Source: a bacterium (GTDB lineage Bacteria; Zhuqueibacterota; Zhuqueibacteria; Oceanimicrobiales; Oceanimicrobiaceae). Taken from it: a stretch of 14,717 bases of DNA. A program made the translations under genes and the position numbers. The notes beneath the pieces were generated by a model. The model made no database searches. It was not told where the DNA came from and saw nothing but the letters and a program-made list of their open reading frames with translations. Positions 2,808 to 13,440 of this stretch are shown piece after piece. How positions within the stretch are numbered: the first letter of the stretch is position 1; every line of letters starts with the position of its first letter. Location of the stretch: positions 1 to 14,717 of the forward strand of contig JBHHXT010000113.1 in NCBI GenBank assembly GCA_046757165.1, read 5' to 3'.

Positions 2808-3470
2808 TCAGATCAACCGCTCCCTGAGCGCCTTGGCCACGACATCGATTTGTGAGTGAACCTGTAGTTTGGTGTAGATGTTTTTGAGGTGGGTATCGAC
2901 GGTATACAAACTGATGTGCAGATGGTCGGCGATGTGTTTTTTGCTCATGCCATTGACCAGGTGCTGTAGGATTTCCTTTTCCCGCTGGGTCAGGCCATAT
3001 TCCTTTTTCGGTTGCGAGTATTCGGTGAACATTTTCAAAACCTTGGCGGCAATGTGCGGGCTCATGGCCGCCCCGCCGCGCACGACATCCGCGATGTAAC
3101 GGCAAATATTCTCCGAAGAAGCAGACTTCAACAGATAGCCTGACGCTCCCTGACAAACCGCATTGAAGATTTTGTCATCATCATCGAAAACCGTCAGCAT
3201 GATGATACGGGAGGCAGGCGAAAGCGCTTTGAAATGCTGGATGCCTTCAATGCCGCTCATGCCGGGCAGGTCGATATCCAGCAGCAAAATCTCTGGCACG
3301 AAATCGCTTTCGATGGCCGCGAGCGCCTCTTCACAGGACTCATAGACGCGTTCACACTTGAGCGTCTCACTCTCGTTGATGAGCTCTTGAATAGATTCCC
3401 GAAAAAGCGCATCATCCTCGACAACCATGACGTTGATGGGATCAGGGATTTGCTTTTTTTCATCTTCCAT
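2808..3470 (-). CDS. NarL/FixJ (LuxR-HTH) family DNA-binding response regulator (220 aa)
   Basis: Receiver motifs VMVVEDD, LLLDIDLPGMSG and GASGYLLK; LuxR HTH LTQREKEILQHLVNGMSKKHIADHLHISLYTVDTHLKNIYTKLQV. Confidence 0.95.
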   Translation of the reverse strand: MEDEKKQIPDPINVMVVEDDALFRESIQELINESETLKCERVYESCEEALAAIESDFVPEILLLDIDLPGMSGIEGIQHFKALSPASRIIMLTVFDDDDKIFNAVCQGASGYLLKSASSENICRYIADVVRGGAAMSPHIAAKVLKMFTEYSQPKKEYGLTQREKEILQHLVNGMSKKHIADHLHISLYTVDTHLKNIYTKLQVHSQIDVVAKALRERLI

Positions 3471-3534
3471 AGCAGGCTCTTTATTTTTGGTTTACCTCAG
3501 TCGTATCGGATTGTGTTCTTCTCTTCAATGGGAG

Positions 3535-3592
3535 GTGGCAATCTCACTGCGCAACGAGGGAGATTGCTTCGCAAAAAGCGCTCGGAATGACA
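3535..3592. repeat. Partial GCAATCTC/GAGATTGCTTCG...AATGAC palindromic (RPE/REP-like) element
   Basis: GCAATCTC (3538-3545) pairs with GAGATTGC (3560-3567) and is followed by TTCGCAAAAAGCGCTCGGAATGACA. This resembles, from memory, a widespread intergenic repeat; its left arm is missing here. Confidence 0.55.
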
Positions 3593-3675
3593 TTTCTTGC
3601 GGACTTTTTTGGAACGATAAACACAGTCGGAGACTGTGTTGGATCGTTAACCGCACTCGACTGATGTCATATGCC

Positions 3676-3721
3676 AAAGTAGGCAACTCTGGCGGGAAAC
3701 GCCATACCGTGATCGCGGTAT
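3676..3721 (-). promoter_or_regulatory. Candidate response-regulator operator (7-2-7 palindrome) plus -10 box facing the response regulator gene
   Basis: ATACCGTGATCGCGGTAT at 3704-3721 is palindromic with one mismatched pair. On the minus strand TACTTT (3681-3676) follows the 16-bp core after 23 nt. A second copy with the same geometry is at 10131. Confidence 0.7.
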
Positions 3722-3958
3722 TTTAGGGTACGGCGTCCGTCTTACGTCGTTCGTCACTGTTAGGCAGCAAAATATGTCACCCCTCGTATGTCAAAAGTGC
3801 AAAACAAAACAGTCCTAACCCAGAAGTTATTCCGCTGAACGTCAAGAGGGGTGTTCTATCTTATCAGCAAATTGCGTAAAACGGAAGCGGCACCCGTATT
3901 TTGGCGGCCGGGACAGATGCTCAGGGGAAGGTTCTGATAATTCAATGGAAGAATCAGA

Positions 3959-4306
3959 TCATGCAAAGGACGTATCGAAAAGGTCGATAGTCCAGGCAAT
4001 CGCGAGAAGAACCTCAGCCAATAGTTGATTATGAAGGCGTCCGAGCTTTCGTTCCAGATAGTTCACTTCAATTGGCTGAATCAGATGGGTCTGCACAATC
4101 GTGTCTTTGGTCAGCCCCGCGGCACCGGCAGGGATAAAAACATGATTTGCCAAAAGGGCTCGCTCCTCTACGCGAGAGGATGTACAAGGTACAACCAATA
4201 CAAGTCGTCCGCGGTTGAGCTCATTGCGAGAAACGATAATTGCCGGACGTTCCCATCCCTTATGAAATTCTGCCCACCAGATTTCACCCTGCCGGGATAA
4301 GCCACG
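3959..4306 (-). pseudogene. PemK/MazF family type II toxin; full domain present but no in-frame start codon
   Basis: Frame 4306-3959 reads RGLSRQGEIWWAEFHKGWERPAIIVSRNELNRGRLVLVVPCTSS...GLTKDTIVQTHLIQPIEVNYLERKLGRL, the PemK pattern (GEIWW, RPAIIVS, VVPxTS). GTG at 4305-4303 is one base out of frame; one extra C in the CCC run (GGG 4294-4296 on +) would give MAYPRQGEIWW. Confidence 0.75.
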
Positions 4307-4522
4307 TCATTCCCCCAGGTCTTGAAGCTGGATAGCGAGGCGGCCGCGGCACGCCCTTACGAACTCGACATCTTCTTCCTCGATTTTCTCTGGCAGCAAT
4401 TTCTTCTTATTCCCCGTATGAGGTTCAAGAATGGTGATTACAACCCGCGAGCCATCTGCTACTTTTAACGCTTCCGGCAATTTTATGACACCCTTTTGAA
4501 CGATTCCCTTTAACGTAATCAT
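4307..4522 (-). CDS. Putative antitoxin, AF2212/DUF104-like (AbrB-type fold), 71 aa
   Basis: MITLKGIVQKGVIKLPEALKVADGSRVVITI resembles the DUF104 pattern; acidic C-terminal patch (EKIEEEDVE); lies directly upstream of a PemK/MazF toxin frame. Confidence 0.7.
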   Translation of the reverse strand: MITLKGIVQKGVIKLPEALKVADGSRVVITILEPHTGNKKKLLPEKIEEEDVEFVRACRGRLAIQLQDLGE

Positions 4523-4629
4523 CTTAATTATTTGTTTTTAGTAAAATACGACCATGTCTTATGAAATGTTGAATATCTTAAACATACGTTGATGAAGGAG
4601 AAAAAACAACAAAAAATTTGCCAACGTGG

Positions 4630-7600
4630 CTACGACCGATTCGACCTGCTCCCCCCTTTGACTCTCAGCTCGACTTCTGTCCCCTCGCCAGGTCGGGAGC
4701 GCAGGGCGACCGTCCCGCCCATCTCCAGTGCCCGGCGCTCGAAGTTTTCCAGGCCATTGCCGCGGGGGGTGGCGTCCACATCGAAACCGACGCCGTCATC
4801 CACAATCTGCATGAGCAGAGTATCTTCATCTTCGCTCAGCGCCAGGACAATGTCCACCTTGCTCGCCAGCGAATGTTTCACAATGTTCTGCAGACTCTCT
4901 TTGTAGATCAAGAACAAATTTCGCCGGAAATTCAAGTCTGTTTCAAACGCCATCTCCACCTTCGGGGTCTGAAAGGTGAAGTCACAGAACTCGAGCATGA
5001 GATTGGCGGTTTCCCGCATCTTTATCCAGAGTTTGTCCAGGCTGTCGTTTGCCGGGTTGACAAACCAGACGATGTCCCGCATGGAATTGGCCGTCTGCTG
5101 CGCCACTCCCTGGATATCTTTCAGGCGATTTCTTTCGTGATCTTCGATTTTGGTTTTTCTCTGCAGGGTCTGACTGATCATGGCGATGCTGCTGAGATTG
5201 CTGCCAATTTCATCGTGCAAGTCGCTGGCGATCCGGCGGCGCATGTGCTCCTTTTCCACTTCTTGCTTCGCCTCGGTGGCTCTGGCCTGCAGCTCAGCCG
5301 CTTCCGCCCGTAGTGTGGCCTCCCTCAAGCTTGCGCGCTCCCGTTCCCGTTGCAGCGCCTCCTCGGCCCTACGCTGATACTGTTTGACCTGAAGATTCGT
5401 AAAGCCGGCCAGACCCAATGCACCCGTGACAAGATATAACGCATACGCCCACCAGGTGCGGTACCAGGGGGGCAAAATAGCAAACTCGAACACATCCTGC
5501 CGGCTGATGTGGCCATAAAGGTTCCTGGCGCGCACACGGAATCGATAGTCATTTTCCGGCAGGTTGGTGTAATCTTTTTTCACCTCCCGGGTCCAGGCCG
5601 ACCACTCCGGCTCGAACCCTTCCAGCCGGTACTGATATTCATTCTCGGGCACCGCATCGTAAGAGGTGGCGGCAGCCTCAAACCGCATGGCGTTGTTTTC
5701 ATACGCCAGAACAGGGGAAACCCCTCCCTGACTCTCCTGATGTGAGACTTTCTTTCCTGCGAAAATGACGGAATCCCCGTTCACCGTCACCCGCCTGATG
5801 ATTGCCTGAAAATCCTGCGCGTAGTTTTTGTTGGTCGCCGGGTCATAGCGGGCAATCCCTTCGCTGCCTCCGATCCAGACCGTGCCATCTTCCTCTGGAT
5901 AGATGGCAAAGACGATGCCGACATCGGCGATGCGCCGGAAGGGTGCGGACTGCCAGACGAAGGACCCGTCCGGTTGCGGCGCAGCGTAGCCGATCATTCT
6001 CTGCTTTTCCTTGCGCGAGAAAATCCACACCCTGCTCTGGCTGTCCTCGACGATGCGCCCGACATAGCGCACGGTATCGGCGAACACGGCGCCATACGTC
6101 GAGTCCGGAGCAAAAGTGCCATTTTTGGCGTCAAAGGTGCGGATGCCACGCTCGGTGCCAAAAACCACACGGCCGGCGATATTGAACACATTCACCTCCC
6201 CAACGGGCAGCTTGTCTTCTTTAAACCTGGTGACAGTGGCCTGAAACCACCCGTTGTCCGGCGGTTTGGACAGGTCCAATCCTTGCACCAGGAAGGCGCC
6301 TTCGACATTCGTTCCCAACCACAAATTGCCGGCCTCATCCCCGGCGATTGAGCGGATTTCCACGGGGATGTCTTTGACGCGTCCGGCGTTCATCCAGCGG
6401 CCATTTGTTCTCTTCAGGACGGCCAATCCGTCTGTCAGCCCCACAAGAATGTGGTCGGGATCGTGTTTGCGGTGGTAGAAGGAAAAGGCCCTGGTGCTTG
6501 CGGACTGGATCCGCTCTGCCCTTTCGCCATGGATTTCATAAACCCCATCGTCAGTTGCTGCCAGCAACAGGTCCCCTTCTGAAAACAACGACCAGGAGAA
6601 TGCTGCAATGTTTGCAACAGATTCGAAAGAAGGCCCCTTATCCTGGCCTGGCGGCCTGGCCGCCAGATAGTACACGCCGCGATGGGTGGCCGCATACAGG
6701 ATTCCCTGGTGTCTGAGAATGTATTCCACGCCGCCTTCAAGACCCGTTTCCGAACCGAAGCGGGTGAACGGCGACGAAATCTCTACCCGGGCAAGGCCGT
6801 TCAAGAGTGACAGCCACAGCGCGCCTTCCCGGTCCACAAAGGTGAAGATGACGGTCTGGTCGCGTAAACCGGAGGCCATGTCCAGTTTTTGCAGCCATCG
6901 CCCTTTCCTGTCGACCACGGCCGCACCGCCCCGGATGGTGCCAAAAACGTAATCCCCATTTGCCAGGCGTGTGCCGCTGTAGATCATGTTGGTTTTCAAG
7001 AATTCGTCGGCCTCTGCTTTGAACGGCGTGAAGGAGGCGCCATCATACAAAAACACCCCCTGAGACCGCGTCCCGACAAGCAACGTGCCGCCGTCTGCAT
7101 AGGGAAACATCGTATCCATCCGTTCGGTGGCGAACTTCTCTCCTCCGGGAAGCAACGCCGGCGCTTCACCAGCGACGCGCATCAAGCCGACATTTTTTTC
7201 GGCGTAATAGAGGGTGTCTCTGACGACTTGTGAGTAGGAATGGGCGTCGATTGGCCAACTTTTGAAGGCATCGTGTGCCCAGAGAAAGAGCTTCTTGACC
7301 GTAAAGAAATAGACGCCATGTCGGGTGGCATGGACGCGCCAGACATCGGCAAAATTGCGGTTTTCTTGCGGGATGCGATCTTCCAACGAGATGAATCGCA
7401 TCGATCCGGTTGAATCGGGCGCCAAATAGCCCAGACCCTGTTCCGCGCCGACGTAGACCACGCCCGTGCTGTCGATGGTCAACGCAATGACCGCCGAGTT
7501 TTTGTCAGTTGTGATGTGGCGCCAGGAGACGCCGTCGTACTCCATCACGCCCCAGTTGTTGCCGACGTAGATGATGCCGCGCTCATCCTGAACGATGGCC

Positions 7601-7776
7601 CAATTCTGCTGATGGGCGTCATATTCTTTGTAGCCGAAATTTCGGATGTAGAGCCGCCCGGCTTCAAGGGAGCGCCCGTTTTGAAAATGGTGTGCACCGG
7701 CTGAATCAGGCCACCAAAATAGTGTGATCAGATATGAAGAAGTTGCCAGGAGACGAAAAAAGGACACTGGCTTCAT
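4630..7776 (-). CDS. Membrane sensor histidine kinase: periplasmic beta-propeller repeats, Y_Y_Y, TM, HisKA_3, HATPase_c (1048 aa)
   Basis: Signal peptide; propeller repeats (DERGIIYVGN, DREGALWL, DEAGNLWLGT, EEDGTVWIGG); Y_Y_Y (YQYRLEGFEPEWS...YTNLPENDYRFRVRARN); PPWYRTWWAY followed by a TM helix; RRRIASDLHDEIGSNLS H-box; KESLQNIVKHS N-box; DDGVGFD and GNGLEN G-boxes. Confidence 0.95.
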   Translation of the reverse strand: MKPVSFFRLLATSSYLITLFWWPDSAGAHHFQNGRSLEAGRLYIRNFGYKEYDAHQQNWAIVQDERGIIYVGNNWGVMEYDGVSWRHITTDKNSAVIALTIDSTGVVYVGAEQGLGYLAPDSTGSMRFISLEDRIPQENRNFADVWRVHATRHGVYFFTVKKLFLWAHDAFKSWPIDAHSYSQVVRDTLYYAEKNVGLMRVAGEAPALLPGGEKFATERMDTMFPYADGGTLLVGTRSQGVFLYDGASFTPFKAEADEFLKTNMIYSGTRLANGDYVFGTIRGGAAVVDRKGRWLQKLDMASGLRDQTVIFTFVDREGALWLSLLNGLARVEISSPFTRFGSETGLEGGVEYILRHQGILYAATHRGVYYLAARPPGQDKGPSFESVANIAAFSWSLFSEGDLLLAATDDGVYEIHGERAERIQSASTRAFSFYHRKHDPDHILVGLTDGLAVLKRTNGRWMNAGRVKDIPVEIRSIAGDEAGNLWLGTNVEGAFLVQGLDLSKPPDNGWFQATVTRFKEDKLPVGEVNVFNIAGRVVFGTERGIRTFDAKNGTFAPDSTYGAVFADTVRYVGRIVEDSQSRVWIFSRKEKQRMIGYAAPQPDGSFVWQSAPFRRIADVGIVFAIYPEEDGTVWIGGSEGIARYDPATNKNYAQDFQAIIRRVTVNGDSVIFAGKKVSHQESQGGVSPVLAYENNAMRFEAAATSYDAVPENEYQYRLEGFEPEWSAWTREVKKDYTNLPENDYRFRVRARNLYGHISRQDVFEFAILPPWYRTWWAYALYLVTGALGLAGFTNLQVKQYQRRAEEALQRERERASLREATLRAEAAELQARATEAKQEVEKEHMRRRIASDLHDEIGSNLSSIAMISQTLQRKTKIEDHERNRLKDIQGVAQQTANSMRDIVWFVNPANDSLDKLWIKMRETANLMLEFCDFTFQTPKVEMAFETDLNFRRNLFLIYKESLQNIVKHSLASKVDIVLALSEDEDTLLMQIVDDGVGFDVDATPRGNGLENFERRALEMGGTVALRSRPGEGTEVELRVKGGSRSNRS

Positions 7777-7827
7777 CTAGCCCTCACGAGTTTGCCTCTT
7801 ATCGCTGCCAGTTTAGTGAGAATTTTG

Positions 7828-9918
7828 TTACGCGAGATGGCTCAGTTTCTCGAGTTTCTCCAGACTGGCTTGCGACCCCATGATCAAGATCGAATCACCG
7901 AATCTGAAACGATAGTCCGGCGTGGGTGGGATAACGTGTTGTTTTTCATTCTTTTCAGCATCATAGTTCTGCTTGATCAGAACGACTTCTGTGCCAAAGC
8001 GGCTGCGCAGATTCAACTCCTTCAACGTTTTGTTCACGAACGACCCCGGGACCTCAATCTCACACAGGATGTGTCCGTCCATTAACTCGAGCCGCTCGAA
8101 CTTGCGTGAGGAACCGATATTCCTGGAAACCGAGGTGACCATGTCCCGTTTGAGCATTTCCTGGTTATAGGCCGCGATCACATCATCTTTGGCAATCGTC
8201 CCGATCAATTGTTTATCATCGTCGCTGCTTACGACCGGCAGCTCGTCGGTGTTCATTTCGCCAAACGCTCTCATCACAATGTCCAGGGTATCCGTGGGTG
8301 TGAAGGCGTGACGGATCGGCGTCAAGAGATCATGGGCGACCAGGATGGACTCCAGGCCATCCGATTCATAAATGATTCTGCGGACATCATGGATGGATAT
8401 GACGCCTGTGAGCTGGTCCTCGCGATTGACGACAAAGAATATCGGATGAGGGCTGCTTACCGTCAAATCCATCAATTTGCGGAATGGGGTGTCGGCGCGG
8501 ATGCGCTCGCAATCTGTTTTCATGACGCCCGACACTTCCAATGAATGCAGAACATTGGTTTCTTGACCCTGAAAAAGATTGATGCCCCGACGAGACAATT
8601 TCAAGGTATAAATGGAGTCTTTCTTCAGTCGAGTGGTGATCAGCACGCTGATGATGCACGCCATCATCAAAGGAAGAATAATACGATAATCATTGGTCAA
8701 TTCAAATATGATGAGAATCGAGGTGATGGGCGCATGCATGGCGCCGGCAGCGACCGCGCCCATTCCCACCAGGGCATAGGCCCCCGGGGAGGCCGTGTGC
8801 GCCGGCGCAAGTGTGTGCACAATCGTGCCGACAAAGCCTCCCAGGTTCGCGCCTAAAAACAGACAAGGGGCAAAGATTCCTCCTGACCCACCGGACCCGA
8901 CCGTGATCGAGGTCGCAGCAACCTTGAAGACGACCAGGACCAGCAGGAAAGACCCCACCAATTTGCCGTTCAAGGCCAGACTGATGGTATCGTAACCCAC
9001 GCCAAAGATATGTGGAAAAGAGATGCCCATCAGTCCGACGAGCAAGCCCCCACAGACAGGTTTCAAAAGTTCAGGGATGGGGAGAGTTTCAAACAGGTCT
9101 TCGGTCTTGTACAACACGTGGATGAAAGCCAGGGCAACAAAGGCGGACAGAATCCCCAGGATGAGATAAGGAATCATTTCGAAAACGCTGACCAGCTCGT
9201 AGGCTGGAATCTCGAAGGCGGAGAAGTCCCCCAGGAAGTGGCGCGAAACGACGGTGGCCGCAACGGATGAAACCACGATTGGGCTGAATTTTGAAATGCC
9301 AAAATCGCTCAGAATCACCTCCATGGCAAAAAGCGCCCCGGCGATGGGCGCGTTGAAGGTGGCCGCAATGCCGGCAGCGGTGCCGCAAGCGACAAATGTC
9401 CGCAGCTGCGACCCCGTCACTTTCAGAACCTGACCCAAAGTGGAACCGATGGCAGAGCCGATCTGAACAATTGGCCCCTCTCGTCCGACCGATCCCCCCG
9501 AGCCAATGGTGAGCGCGGAGGCCACGACCTTGGCGATCATCACACGCGGACGAATCGCGCCGCCGCGCAGCACGATGGACTCCATGACTTCGGGAACCCC
9601 ATGACCTTTGGCCTCGCGGGCAAAGTAGAAGACGATGGGGCCCACAATCAGTCCGCCCACTGCCGGGGCAAAAAGCTTGACATACCAGGGCAATTGCAGG
9701 GCGTATTCCAGCGTGTATTCCCAGGTGCCAAAAAAGACCCCCTGAAAGAACCGAATGGCCAGGCGAAAGAAGATGGCACCAAAGCCACCGAGCAATCCAA
9801 TCACCACGGCAACGACCACCATGAACGTATGTTCATTCATGCGAAGCCGAGGCAGTTGATCGACAATCAGTCGTTGCCAGAACCTTGTGATTGCGCGTAT
9901 ATGAATAGAGTTAGACAT
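7828..9918 (-). CDS. ClC family chloride channel/transporter with CBS pair and C-terminal TrkA_C (RCK_C) domain (696 aa)
   Basis: Motifs GHGVPEV, GGSVGREGPIVQIG, ATFNAPIAG, GGSGGIFAP and SIYT; two CBS repeats; VNKTLKELNLRSRFGTEVVLIK...GDSILIMG is TrkA_C-like; GAAGGTG RBS before ATG 9918. Confidence 0.93.
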   Translation of the reverse strand: MSNSIHIRAITRFWQRLIVDQLPRLRMNEHTFMVVVAVVIGLLGGFGAIFFRLAIRFFQGVFFGTWEYTLEYALQLPWYVKLFAPAVGGLIVGPIVFYFAREAKGHGVPEVMESIVLRGGAIRPRVMIAKVVASALTIGSGGSVGREGPIVQIGSAIGSTLGQVLKVTGSQLRTFVACGTAAGIAATFNAPIAGALFAMEVILSDFGISKFSPIVVSSVAATVVSRHFLGDFSAFEIPAYELVSVFEMIPYLILGILSAFVALAFIHVLYKTEDLFETLPIPELLKPVCGGLLVGLMGISFPHIFGVGYDTISLALNGKLVGSFLLVLVVFKVAATSITVGSGGSGGIFAPCLFLGANLGGFVGTIVHTLAPAHTASPGAYALVGMGAVAAGAMHAPITSILIIFELTNDYRIILPLMMACIISVLITTRLKKDSIYTLKLSRRGINLFQGQETNVLHSLEVSGVMKTDCERIRADTPFRKLMDLTVSSPHPIFFVVNREDQLTGVISIHDVRRIIYESDGLESILVAHDLLTPIRHAFTPTDTLDIVMRAFGEMNTDELPVVSSDDDKQLIGTIAKDDVIAAYNQEMLKRDMVTSVSRNIGSSRKFERLELMDGHILCEIEVPGSFVNKTLKELNLRSRFGTEVVLIKQNYDAEKNEKQHVIPPTPDYRFRFGDSILIMGSQASLEKLEKLSHLA

Positions 9919-10127
9919 TTCACCTTCTTTTCGTCACCTACCCCCCGATGCTCAACTCTGAGAATCAGGCGTCTCTTCTTTGCCCAACCTGAACAGCGTG
10001 AAGATAAGTTATTCCCACCTGCAAAACAAGAAAAAATGACGCAGATAGGCGGCAGAGCAAGAACGGCACAATGGGGTGAATAGATAGAGCGTTACATGTT
10101 AGAGGTCGCGCACCGGGGGGGGGAGCA

Positions 10128-10175
10128 AAATACCGTGATCTCGGTATTTATAATTCTGAGATAAAACCCTATTTT
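10128..10175 (+). promoter_or_regulatory. Candidate response-regulator operator (7-2-7 palindrome) plus -10 box facing the OMP/T9SS-cargo cluster
   Basis: AAATACCGTGATCTCGGTATTT at 10128-10149 is a 22-bp palindrome with one mismatched pair. TATTTT (10170-10175) follows the 16-bp core after 23 nt. AGGAGG RBS at 10194-10199. Confidence 0.7.
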
Positions 10176-10206
10176 GTGACACATTAACCAATCAGGAGGT
10201 TTTGCA

Positions 10207-10780
10207 ATGAAACAACGTTACGGGTTACTATTTTTTGTTTGTGCGGCACTGTTCGCCGGATGAACTCTTTTTGCACAGACAGATATCGGTTTCAAAGGAG
10301 TTGGCGGTGAAATTGGTCTGGTGGATCCTGAGGGCTGGGCGGGATGGCGTTTGGATTAGGAGCATTTGCCGATCTAGGCACGATTACTCCCAACTTTCAT
10401 CTGGAAGGCAACCTTGATTACTGGTCCAAATCCTTCTCGAGTGGAGGGCGAAGTCTTCCTTTCGGGATATCGCTTTCGGCGGTACGGTAAAATACATTTT
10501 CCCGGTATCCAACCCGGCATTACGCCCATTTGCTGGCGGCGGACTTGCCCTGCACTTTCTCAATGTCGATGTCGATGTGCCCGAGGTGGATTTTGGCGGA
10601 ACGACATTCGGCGGCTCGAGCTCTGAAACCACCACCAAGATTGGCTTCAATATCGCGGGGGGCGTATTTTATAAAATGAACCCAAAAGTTGATTTGATCG
10701 GTGAATTCAAGTTTAGAGTTGTCAGCAATTTCAATCAGATCATCTTGAGAGTCGGGGCGTTGTTTTACCTGGGACAGTGA
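10207..10780 (+). pseudogene. Disrupted small outer-membrane beta-barrel protein (about 190 aa when repaired)
   Basis: AGGAGG then ATG 10207: MKQRYGLLFFVCAALFAG*TLFAQTDIGFKGVGGEIGLVDPEG (TGA at 10261-10263). A -1 shift near 10335 gives GGMAFGLGAFADLGTITPNFHLEGNLDYWSKSFSSGG. A second -1 shift near 10447 gives AKSSFRDIAFGGTVKYIFPVSNPALRPFAGGGLALHF...FNQIILRVGALFYLGQ*. The repaired protein has amphipathic beta-strands and an aromatic C-terminal strand. Confidence 0.85.
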
Positions 10781-10825
10781 CGGGGATGGTCATTCGCTTC
10801 GCGTCATCCAGGCAATAGACACCTG

Positions 10826-10976
10826 AACCCCGAAGGGATTCCACAAACGGGACAGGGGCGCAGTCCAGCCTGTCAGACCCCGTTGGGGTCTCATCTTTTG
10901 AGGACACGGTGCCCCAGGGTTAATCCGGACAAGTCGGGATTAACCCTGGGCTGTGATGTTTGACCGCGTTGCGGTC
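10826..10976. repeat. Composite REP-like multi-hairpin element
   Basis: AACCCC-GAA-GGGATT (10826-10840); AGACCCC-GTT-GGGGTCT (10875-10891); 14-bp perfect stem CCCAGGGTTAATCC/GGATTAACCCTGGG (10913-10926/10937-10950); GACCGC-GTT-GCGGTC (10962-10976). Confidence 0.7.
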
Positions 10977-11092
10977 TATTGGTGCAGGCGGATGGTCTGG
11001 TTGAGCTACATAAGTATCTTGAATACACCACTTAGATATTACGACGTGAACAAACTTTTGATAATACCAACCTAAAAACAAGGAGGGTGTCC

Positions 11093-12253
11093 ATGAAACA
11101 CCTGTTACTGGCTATTCGTTGGAAACTCGGGCTGTGCCTGTTATTGGCTCTGCCCAACTTTCTCTACTCGCAAATTACCCTCACTTCGGAGGGTCTGCTC
11201 AGCAAAATCGGCTCCCGGCAGGTCGTGCTCGTGGACAGGCGAGATAGCATTCCGGTCGACCTCGGTTCGCCAGGGGCCGATCAAATCTGGGATTTCAGGA
11301 GCGCTGTCATTGCTGATACCGTGGTCGGAGTGTTTGAATTCATGCGTCCTGAAGACACGCCCACGCCGGACCTGTTTCCGGGCGCAAATATGGTCAGCAA
11401 GATCACGACTACGGAAGCCCCGGGCACATCTATATTCAGCTACTTCGATGTGCAGAACGATTTTTTTCTTGAACTCGGGGACAGCTCCATCGTCTCTCTT
11501 GCCGATTCGCTTTTCATCCGTGTGCAAGCAGAACACGACACTATCGCACCGCTGCCAGTGGCGTTCAATAATTCGTGGAGAAGTGTTGATGTCGATAGCT
11601 CGATAACTATCGCGATCAATCCGGTCACCGGAGATACCACGACGCTGATTTCAGTGAGTGTCGACAGCATCGACAACCTGATCGACGGTTGGGGCACGGT
11701 CAGACTCCCGCTTGGCGATTTCGAGTGCTTGCGCTTGCGCCAGGACGTCAAGGTGATGATGAAAACACTTGTCGATGGGACAGTTGTCTCTTCCGGTACC
11801 GAGACTTTTATTCAGTACAACTGGATTTCGCCGGAAGATTACTTGCTGCTTGATATTCAGAGCCAGTTTGGCAACGCCGATCCCGACTTCACGGATGCGC
11901 AGGGGTTTGCGCTCCTCGACACATTGGAGAGCTCGCCAACTACCGGTATTTCTGATGCCCCGGCTGGAGTTCCGGCCGCCTTTGCCCTGAGCCAAAATTA
12001 TCCCAATCCCTTCAACCCCGAGACGATTATCTCCTATCAGGTCCGCGAGGCGTCGCAGGTGAGGCTGACGATATTCAACCTCCTCGGCCAGTCCGTGCGC
12101 CAGCTCGTGTCGGAACGTGTTCAGTCCGGCCAGCATCAGGTCGTTTGGGATGGCATGAATGATTCCGGCCGTCCGGTTCCCTCGGGCGTCTATGTCTACC
12201 GGCTGCAGACCGGCGAAGTCACACAAAGTCGAAAGATGATTCTTCTAAAATAA
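11093..12253 (+). CDS. Secreted protein with FlgD-Ig / T9SS type A C-terminal sorting domain and an unknown beta-rich N-terminal domain (386 aa)
   Basis: ATG 11093 is preferred over GTG 11087 because AGGAGG is at 11081-11086. Signal peptide ends LYS|QIT. Motifs GSPGADQIWDF and IDGWGTVRLPLGDFECLR; CTD FALSQNYPNPFNPET...WDGMNDSGRPVPSGVYVYRL...KMILLK. Confidence 0.9.
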   Translation: MKHLLLAIRWKLGLCLLLALPNFLYSQITLTSEGLLSKIGSRQVVLVDRRDSIPVDLGSPGADQIWDFRSAVIADTVVGVFEFMRPEDTPTPDLFPGANMVSKITTTEAPGTSIFSYFDVQNDFFLELGDSSIVSLADSLFIRVQAEHDTIAPLPVAFNNSWRSVDVDSSITIAINPVTGDTTTLISVSVDSIDNLIDGWGTVRLPLGDFECLRLRQDVKVMMKTLVDGTVVSSGTETFIQYNWISPEDYLLLDIQSQFGNADPDFTDAQGFALLDTLESSPTTGISDAPAGVPAAFALSQNYPNPFNPETIISYQVREASQVRLTIFNLLGQSVRQLVSERVQSGQHQVVWDGMNDSGRPVPSGVYVYRLQTGEVTQSRKMILLK

Positions 12254-12360: not shown

Positions 12361-13440
12361 ATGAAACTCGTGACCAGGAAATGGGCTGTTTTGCTAACTC
12401 TGGCTTTTGTGCCAGTCACATCCGTACACGTTAGCGCCCAGACGACCGCGTATGGCATTGACGCCAGCGCGTTTCCTACCATCACTTTTTCCTCTCTGCC
12501 GCTTCCGGCCGCTACACCGGTTACACCAATTGGCGTCACGGCCGCAGGCGGACAGGGTGGAGACTTTGGGCCGGACAGTCTGTTTTACGCCCGGAGTGAC
12601 AATGACCTGGTGACGGTCAGCTTGACCGACGGCAGTCTCACCACCATCGGTACCATCACGGGGCTCAGCAGCGGGCAGGCGGTCATTGGTATGGGATTCG
12701 ACCACGCGAGCGGGACGATGTACCTGGCAAGCACCAACTTGTCCAGTTCAGGTTCGGAATTGTACACGCTGGACCTTACGACCGCCGCCGCTTCTCTGGT
12801 CGGAACCATCACCAACGCGAAGTTTGTCCTGGCCATCGCGGTCGACTGCCAGGGCAACCTCTTTGCCTTTGACGACCAGAACGACAACCTGGTCGCCGTC
12901 GATCCGGCAACCGGCAGCGGGACCGTGGTTGGCCCATTGAATTTTGATACGGGCCCCGTGGCACAAGATGCGGACTTTGATGCCGCCACCGGCACGTTGT
13001 ACTGGACCTTTTTCAATGGCACCAGTGGCGAATTGCGAACCGTTGATCCCGCAACCGGAGGCTCGACCCCGGTGACGACGTGGTCAGCCGACTTTATCGC
13101 TTTCGCCATTCTTGGAGATTGCACGGCCACGAGTGTCGGGGAGAGGTCGAACCAGGTTCCGCAGAGATTCACGCTGGGCCAGAATTATCCCAACCCCTTC
13201 AACCCGGAAACCGTGATCTCCTATCGAACGGCTGAAAGCGGCCGGGTGGAGCTGGCGATCTACAATTTGTTAGGCCAAAAAGTACGGGCACTGGTGGACG
13301 AGACACAGCCTGCCGGGGCGTATGCCGTAAGCTGGAACGGGACAGACGATCTCGGGAGACCGGTCAGCGGCGGCGTCTATGTCTACCGGTTGCGCTCCGG
13401 TTACCTGACGCAGACGAAGAAGATGATTTTATTGCAGTAG
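12361..13440 (+). CDS. Secreted beta-propeller protein with FlgD-Ig / T9SS type A C-terminal sorting domain (359 aa)
   Basis: AAGGAGG RBS; signal peptide VSA|Q; repeated blades (LVTVSLTDGSLTTIG, LYTLDLTTAAASLVG, LVAVDPATGSGTVVG, LRTVDPATGGSTPV); CTD LGQNYPNPFNPET...GGVYVYRL...KMILLQ. Confidence 0.9.
   Translation: MKLVTRKWAVLLTLAFVPVTSVHVSAQTTAYGIDASAFPTITFSSLPLPAATPVTPIGVTAAGGQGGDFGPDSLFYARSDNDLVTVSLTDGSLTTIGTITGLSSGQAVIGMGFDHASGTMYLASTNLSSSGSELYTLDLTTAAASLVGTITNAKFVLAIAVDCQGNLFAFDDQNDNLVAVDPATGSGTVVGPLNFDTGPVAQDADFDAATGTLYWTFFNGTSGELRTVDPATGGSTPVTTWSADFIAFAILGDCTATSVGERSNQVPQRFTLGQNYPNPFNPETVISYRTAESGRVELAIYNLLGQKVRALVDETQPAGAYAVSWNGTDDLGRPVSGGVYVYRLRSGYLTQTKKMILLQ

Follow-up and report, generated by a model that had tools for sequence, protein, structure and literature searches.

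Twin operators in front of a regulator gene and a secreted-protein cluster

In a 14,717-nucleotide stretch of bacterial DNA (the window: contig JBHHXT010000113.1 of assembly GCA_046757165.1, family Oceanimicrobiaceae), two nearly identical palindromes precede the gene of a NarL/FixJ-family response regulator and a cluster of genes for proteins with type IX secretion (T9SS) sorting domains. As judged from sequence, both palindromes are real operators of a known kind of system. We consider it probable (about 0.75) that the local NarL-type regulator, phosphorylated by a neighbouring propeller kinase, activates both promoters through these palindromes. That they are the cognate binding site of this regulator appears very likely, and given binding, activation would be the strongly expected outcome. 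The mechanism is that of NarL and is already known; what is new is the operator sequence, its overlap with a kinase stop codon, the cargo targets and the series of paralogues. Neither the operator sequence nor the system was found in print in open-access text. The elements in question are:

3705..3720, minus strand: operator A, 16-bp 7-2-7 core, TACCGCGATCACGGTA when read towards the regulator, with a conserved AAAA before it and a T after it; profile score 34.3, the best in the genome
3676..3704, minus strand: predicted sigma-70 promoter of the regulator, with a weak -35 position TGGCGT (3699-3704, 2/6) and a -10 box TACTTT (3676-3681); start expected near 3669
10131..10146, plus strand: operator B, 16-bp core TACCGTGATCTCGGTA; profile score 33.0
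10147..10175, plus strand: predicted sigma-70 promoter on the cargo side, with -35 position TTTATA (10147-10152, 4/6) and -10 box TATTTT (10170-10175); start expected near 10182
2808..3470, minus strand: NarL/FixJ-family response regulator, 220 aa; receiver and GerE helix-turn-helix (HTH) domains, D65, helix TVDTHLKNIY at 190-199
4630..7776, minus strand: sensor kinase, 1048 aa; propeller repeats, Y_Y_Y, HisKA_3 (H854) and HATPase_c

The palindromes lie in two 20-mers (3704-3723 and 10130-10149) that differ at one base, as an earlier reading made from the sequence alone (the sequence-only reading) had reported. Their core, TACCG-N6-CGGTA, occurs twice in the window; shuffled windows hold 0.14 on average, and two matches were reached in one of 200 shuffles. 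The bare core is found 9 times in the 6.09-Mb genome (G000), with about 2.6 expected per spacing (1-9 each for spacings 0-15). No match to the 20-mer with up to three mismatches exists in this genome outside the window, and the flanks of the two copies cannot be aligned in either orientation; the pair is therefore not a duplication or repeat. The same genome scan answers the concern that the motif might be a scattered member of a repeat family.

At both sites exactly 23 nt separate the core from the -10 box, again as first described, although the CC preceding the box, which had been offered as shared context, is not conserved in relatives. The view that neither site has a good -35 was half right: it is poor at site A, and at site B a partial -35 directly abuts the operator. 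Promoters of G000 follow the canonical sigma-70 spacing (TTGAC-N17-TAnnnT occurs 407 times versus 84-162 at other spacings), so the six bases after the operator correspond to the -35 position. Across loci, the match at this position averages 3.9/6 at 19 B sites and 2.7/6 at 23 A sites, and TTTACA is present in 7 of the 19 B sites. A consensus promoter scan picked up neither promoter (6 sites versus 7.5 by chance) and an Rfam search returned no match. When a profile built from other genomes, whose training sites scored 22.3-35.5, was used to scan G000, the two window sites obtained 34.3 and 33.0; the next locus reached 22.3 and had no -10 box.

Conservation of the layout in relatives

A regulator orthologue (72-79%) is present in 6 of 20 same-family genomes. 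All six carry site A immediately upstream of the regulator and site B ahead of a cargo gene; a TAnnnT box follows at 23 nt in five of six A sites and in all six B sites. In a species-genome collection, 79 loci were compared, of which 32 have the recognition helix T[VIL][DE]THLKNIY and 47 are other NarL-type loci. An 18-mer with at most two mismatches was found in 32/32 same-helix loci versus 17/47 others, and the operator together with a -10 box at 23 nt in 29/32 versus 3/47. Conservation upstream of regulator orthologues, which the sequence-only reading had put forward as a check, is thus borne out. A stricter pattern gave 29 and 27 of 32 versus 2 and 0 of 47, figures that are partly circular since the pattern was devised after seeing the sites. 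The regulator tree leaves out L108 and L053, which are truncated or have no upstream DNA.

The spacing stands out without any selection for it. Among 55 sites retained from 68 candidates, TAnnnT on either side was counted at every offset: 42 are at 23 nt, and no other offset has more than 8. The oriented consensus is AAAA TACC(G/C)(T/C)(G/A)A(T/A)(C/T)N CGGTA T; core, loop letters and -10 box are conserved, and the spacer between core and -10 carries no information. The composite pattern is found in 8 of 167 genomes of the phylum and in 10 of 10 chosen genomes, with none for the control in either set (a reversed control in the former).

Searching metagenomes with the motif alone yielded 81 sites from 80 of 120 stretches, 13 of them with a -10 box at 23 nt. 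A kinase, regulator or cargo homologue lies beside 7 of these 13 sites versus 1 of the 68 others. Five of the loci include a regulator, and all four readable helices are T[VI]DTHLKNIY. Several sites without such context stand after gene ends and are terminator-like, as judged with 39 of 75 neighbouring open reading frames (ORFs) scanned.

In 13 of 23 loci site A overlaps the kinase stop codon, in one fixed register, and in many kinases its left half reads K-I-P-stop; the present kinase ends differently at that point. In 9 of the 23 loci the kinase stop has moved away and the site is kept. In L001, L002 and L005 the kinase and cargo genes diverge around site B and the regulator directly follows the kinase. 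From this layout, the ClC gene, the outer-membrane protein (OMP) gene and the toxin-antitoxin-like insert of the present locus look like later insertions. In genome G004 (L006, L023, L030) regulator, kinase and cargo cluster lie apart, yet both A and B sites are kept. In L050, 8 kb of sequence include four operators, all identical or nearly so, and two of these stand 22 nt from a -10 box.

Comparison with NarL and other known systems

The regulator combines a receiver (PF00072, 73 bits), with the acidic pocket D19/D20, the phospho-acceptor D65, T93 and K115, and a C-terminal GerE/LuxR-type HTH domain (PF00196, 65.6 bits); residues 10-219 align to NarL. Its partner kinase is of the HisKA_3 type (PF07730, 42.5 bits) and adjoins the regulator in relatives. 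Among named relatives, those closest to the regulator carry the labels candidate division KSB1 and Calditrichia, which makes it likely that the organism is a member of that group.

The closest parallel is NarL at the Escherichia coli yeaR promoter. According to PMC10853779, NarL activates yeaR from a 16-bp 7-2-7 site at -43.5 through the C-terminal domain of the RNA polymerase alpha subunit (alpha CTD), mainly by K174, and reads bases with K188, V189 and K192. Counted directly in the E. coli record, the yeaR site is 16 bp long and is followed after exactly 23 nt by TACCCT; the -35 position also matches 4/6 and is abutted but not covered by the site. Receiver and LuxR-type HTH, a HisKA_3 kinase partner, the TA...GGTA site, the 23 nt to the -10 box and the centre at -43.5 are common to both. 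The NarL-like 7-2-7 operator that the sequence-only reading had proposed before the regulator and the T9SS cargo is thus supported. NarL K174, H190 and K192 are kept as K178, H194 and K196. In the alpha-CTD contact pair, K174 is kept and R178 is D182 here; residue 178 is K or R in 31 of the 32 same-helix loci. Unlike in NarL sites, the heptamer here is TACCG(T/C)G, the centre is an asymmetric GATC, and a run of A lies upstream. The sensor is a propeller/Y_Y_Y protein rather than a NarX-type nitrate sensor, the targets are T9SS cargo rather than respiratory genes, two sites stand against about 100 genes for NarL, and one promoter, unlike at yeaR, lies in front of the regulator itself. Identity with the NarX/NarL or NarQ/NarP nitrate systems was rejected on account of D192/T193, the propeller sensor and the secreted-protein targets.

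Bacteroides hybrid two-component sensors use an AraC output and sense glycans. The kinase ectodomain resembles their propeller sensors (PDB 4a2l, 3va6, 3v9f) in its propeller and Y_Y_Y parts, and its gene likewise lies beside its targets. Unlike these hybrids, the system is not one fused chain: the kinase chain ends after HATPase_c and the NarL-type regulator is a separate gene. The best PDB matches, VraR/LiaR, ChrA and DesR, share the NarL-family fold and HisKA_3 kinases but have other sensors, helices (TVKTH) and targets. Autoregulation is common in that group.

PorXY-SigP of Porphyromonas gingivalis is reported (PMC4800418, PMC8265659, PMC12152298) to be another T9SS-tied two-component system with feedback through its own outputs. 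In that system an ECF (extracytoplasmic function) sigma factor reportedly acts on the secretion machinery; here a DNA-binding NarL-type regulator would control cargo at sigma-70 promoters. Identity with PorXY-SigP was rejected, as the regulator has its own HTH and the sites occur only before itself and cargo.

Cargo genes and size of the regulon

The cargo side of the window includes the following features.

10207..10780, plus strand: outer-membrane beta-barrel (OMP) pseudogene, interrupted by an in-frame stop (TGA, 10261-10263) and by two frame breaks, one near 10345 and one near 10445; OMP_b-brl 28.5 bits, just below the 28.7 cut-off
10780..11080, no strand: repeat found genome-wide; it includes a terminator-like stem (10875-10891) and a hairpin with 18-bp arms (10913-10950)
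11093..12253, plus strand: secreted protein S1 of 386 aa with a T9SS type A sorting domain; its N-terminal part belongs to no named family
12361..13440, plus strand: secreted protein S2, 359 aa; DUF4394/DUF6923 repeats and T9SS sorting domain; its homologue comes first after operator B in L002
13449..14717, plus strand: ORF S3, truncated at the contig end and without a family; also found after cargo genes in L022

The C-terminal sorting domains of S1 and S2 score 41 and 37 bits with TIGR04183 (cut-off 23), and the genome encodes SprA (579.9 bits) and PorV (111.9 bits), the two translocon components that were searched. In several relatives, the gene that comes first behind operator B is an S1 homologue. 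An atlas search with S1 residues 26-285 gave hypothetical proteins as best matches (0.86-0.89), which is a lead only.

Of the first ORFs after 27 B-type sites, 16 carry a T9SS-type tail (TIGR04183 above its cut-off in 15, FlgD_ig in one), and in relatives the tailed gene begins 30-220 nt after B. The cargo itself varies by genome and includes S1- and S2-like proteins, beta-helix proteins, GH130-like repeats and peptidases. Cargo genes also follow sites whose contig is not that of the regulator (L023, mid-contig; L244; L245), in keeping with a diffusible binder. In ten other genomes the count is 1-3 sites per genome, and G000 has only two good sites versus 126 NYPNPFN cargo-tail motifs genome-wide. 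The regulon is small and is not a genome-wide T9SS-cargo regulon; the two-component regulon suggested earlier is thus supported for the cargo genes next to the sites and not as a general control of T9SS cargo.

The OMP gene, towards which site B had been described as pointing, is a pseudogene, and a repeat separates it from the cargo genes. Its decay looks real rather than an assembly error: in contigs of four DNA runs, all of one study, no indel is listed at the first break, and the stop is unchanged among the changes listed. Two of the four runs (X3, X4) have an extra base at the second break, behind 10445, so the decay is still segregating. A transcript from operator B would first cross pseudogene and repeat, and output to S1 and S2 may therefore be reduced. 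On balance we lean slightly towards operator B still reaching S1 in the present genome.

Proposed mechanism

The kinase would sense a periplasmic ligand and phosphorylate D65; analogy with the Bacteroides propeller sensors makes a fragment of a glycan or of another polymer the most likely ligand. The regulator dimer would then bind from -51 to -36 and recruit sigma-70 polymerase through the alpha CTD, using K178 (NarL K174). Promoter B would drive a short, genome-specific set of T9SS cargo. Promoter A would feed back positively, and only on the regulator; in relatives its site is embedded in the final codons of the kinase. A promoter for the kinase was rejected, as none of 16 sites has TAnnnT at 23 nt in the opposite direction; feedback would therefore raise the regulator only. 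Autoactivation as first suggested would act through site A and leave out the kinase.

If so, a binding site, promoters and targets can be assigned to an uncharacterised two-component system of uncultured bacteria, and a likely route is given for control of individual T9SS cargo genes rather than of the secretion machine.

Alternative explanations

Several observations weigh against the proposed activation by the local regulator. The -10 box at 23 nt is missing in 3 of the 32 same-helix loci. These 32 loci form one clade, so the link between helix and operator is one event and its conservation does not amount to 32 independent cases; besides, the seed words of the search included DTHLKNIY, and six of the 32 loci repeat an earlier set. 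The bare 18-mer is weakly diagnostic (18 sites versus 10 for the control in 41 genomes); with the composite pattern clean, it is spacing and position that carry the signal. Of the metagenome sites, 43/81 lie inside ORFs and 25/81 are intergenic without -10 box or context. Behind the 27 B-type sites, the first ORF has no tail in six cases and is cut by the locus end in five. The kinase membrane segment is only moderately hydrophobic (1.3), and NarL K188, V189 and R178 are replaced by D192, T193 and D182. Finally, the outer half TACCG also occurs with other helices (L007, L121, L250), which rules out a simple residue code and makes cross-talk possible.

The operator may be real and its cargo branch vestigial here, with B driving a dead OMP gene, transcription ending in the repeat, and S1 and S2 silent or served by another promoter. 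We regard this as unlikely, if a serious alternative. The stop and both frame breaks of the OMP gene, with no indel at the first break in the four-run contigs, speak for it, as do the long hairpin and terminator-like stem before S1 and the much shorter distance from B to the tailed gene in relatives. The stem is weak evidence, because the terminator scan gave 20 sites versus 15.1 by chance, and operator B has kept its -10 box and a score near the top of the training range. An improbable variant is that the local regulator binds but represses, or roadblocks read-through from kinase to regulator. The B promoters of relatives, with their near-consensus -35 elements, could be active alone, and the overlap of site A with the kinase stop codon in a fixed register would suit a roadblock. 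However, the site abuts the -35 and leaves it uncovered, precisely the arrangement of the activated yeaR promoter, and a fixed 23-nt spacing with a kept alpha-CTD lysine is expected of activation and not of steric repression.

Binding by a paralogue or a global factor is quite improbable. TACCG half-sites do accompany other helices and G000 holds two further NarL-type genes, but the paralogue on contig C470 comes with a palindrome of its own, present twice at 23 nt, more than two sites would be expected of a global factor, and the motif-first metagenome search led to nearby regulators whose readable helices (4/4) are all T[VI]DTHLKNIY. A reading of the palindrome as an RNA hairpin or terminator, or as a by-product of the conserved last kinase codons (Ile-Pro-stop), is very improbable. 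The K-I-P-stop reading of the left half invites the latter, and similar palindromes with A/T runs after or between convergent genes in unrelated metagenome contigs invite the former. Yet site B, flanked by divergent genes, is non-coding, and site A persists without the kinase stop in other loci and, here, at a distance of 900 nt from the kinase. Site A is not followed by a U run, conservation includes the loop letters, and the folds are unremarkable in the facing orientation (z -1.65 and -1.23; the best of four, on the minus strand of B, is -2.46). The terminator and by-product readings are largely refuted by this evidence. The window does hold several true repeats, but with unalignable flanks, no third copy, and a spacer free of information between a conserved core and -10 box, chance or a duplicated element is hardly credible.

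Paralogous regulators and operator specificity

The layout extends to related regulators. A palindrome 23 nt before TAnnnT was found upstream of the regulator in 23 of 61 other NarL-type loci, versus 3-12 at other offsets; several paralogues have no such palindrome. Related regulators share related palindromes. In genome G167, four paralogue loci differ from one another in their operator-like palindromes, all at 23 nt. As many as five operators of this sort occur side by side in one genome. At the C470 paralogue of G000, TACGGCATGTGCCGTA precedes the regulator and a variant follows, each at 23 nt from a -10 box. A simple helix-to-base code was rejected, since TACCG accompanies several helices; specificity probably also uses the operator centre.

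A tentative generalisation is that in KSB1, Calditrichota, Ignavibacteria and Bacteroidota pairs of kinase and NarL paralogues might serve as plug-in switches. Each would have its own 16-bp operator at -43.5, with one copy in the kinase stop codon for feedback and others before swappable T9SS cargo; the secreted cargo might make or release the ligand of the kinase and so close an extracellular loop. The fixed 23-nt rule finds paralogue operators and makes the regulons of a large unstudied family testable, including that of a cultured relative with a variant operator (L089). If true, the targets of uncharacterised kinase/NarL systems would be readable from sequence alone.

Loci labelled Bacteroidota (L071, L074, L075, L079, L080, L105; L083, L087, L089, L104) show two further operator families, TAGCTATNATTAGTCA with helix TVNNHVKK and TCACGGAAATG(G/A)GTGA with helix TVRTHLKN. 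In L060, L061, L065, L077 and L082 the kinase and regulator genes overlap or have short gaps, with no operator between them. The first gene after the C470 module (L258, ~20-900) is a 130-aa lipoprotein-like ORF, followed, by eye, by a toxin-antitoxin-like pair.

Other genes and repeats of the window

Three further features belong to the minus-strand side.

3520..3660, no strand: short genome-wide repeats lengthening the regulator leader; the distance from operator to ATG is 235 nt here, and in most relatives ~55-190 nt separate the operator from the matched start
3725..4650, minus strand: insert between kinase end and operator A, with a 71-aa ORF (4307-4522, no family) and a PemK/MazF-like frame (3959-4306) without in-frame start near its 5' end
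7828..9918, minus strand: ClC channel-CBS-TrkA_C gene between kinase start and operator B, not found at the same place in relatives' loci

The insert is missing between kinase and regulator in L001, L002, L004 and L005; its 71-aa ORF and PemK/MazF-like frame (3959-4522, minus strand) sit at the last codons of the kinase. Downstream of the regulator, a 713-aa lipoprotein-like ORF with VWA and OmpA domains occupies 172-2313 on the minus strand; by eye, a VWA-like gene also follows the cargo genes in L036, L037, L056 and L068. The intergenic repeats at 2340-2800, 3520-3660 and 10780-11080 have ~4-32 blastn matches each elsewhere in the genome, and the part at 2640-2760 contains TTGACA-N18-TACTTT facing the OmpA/VWA gene.

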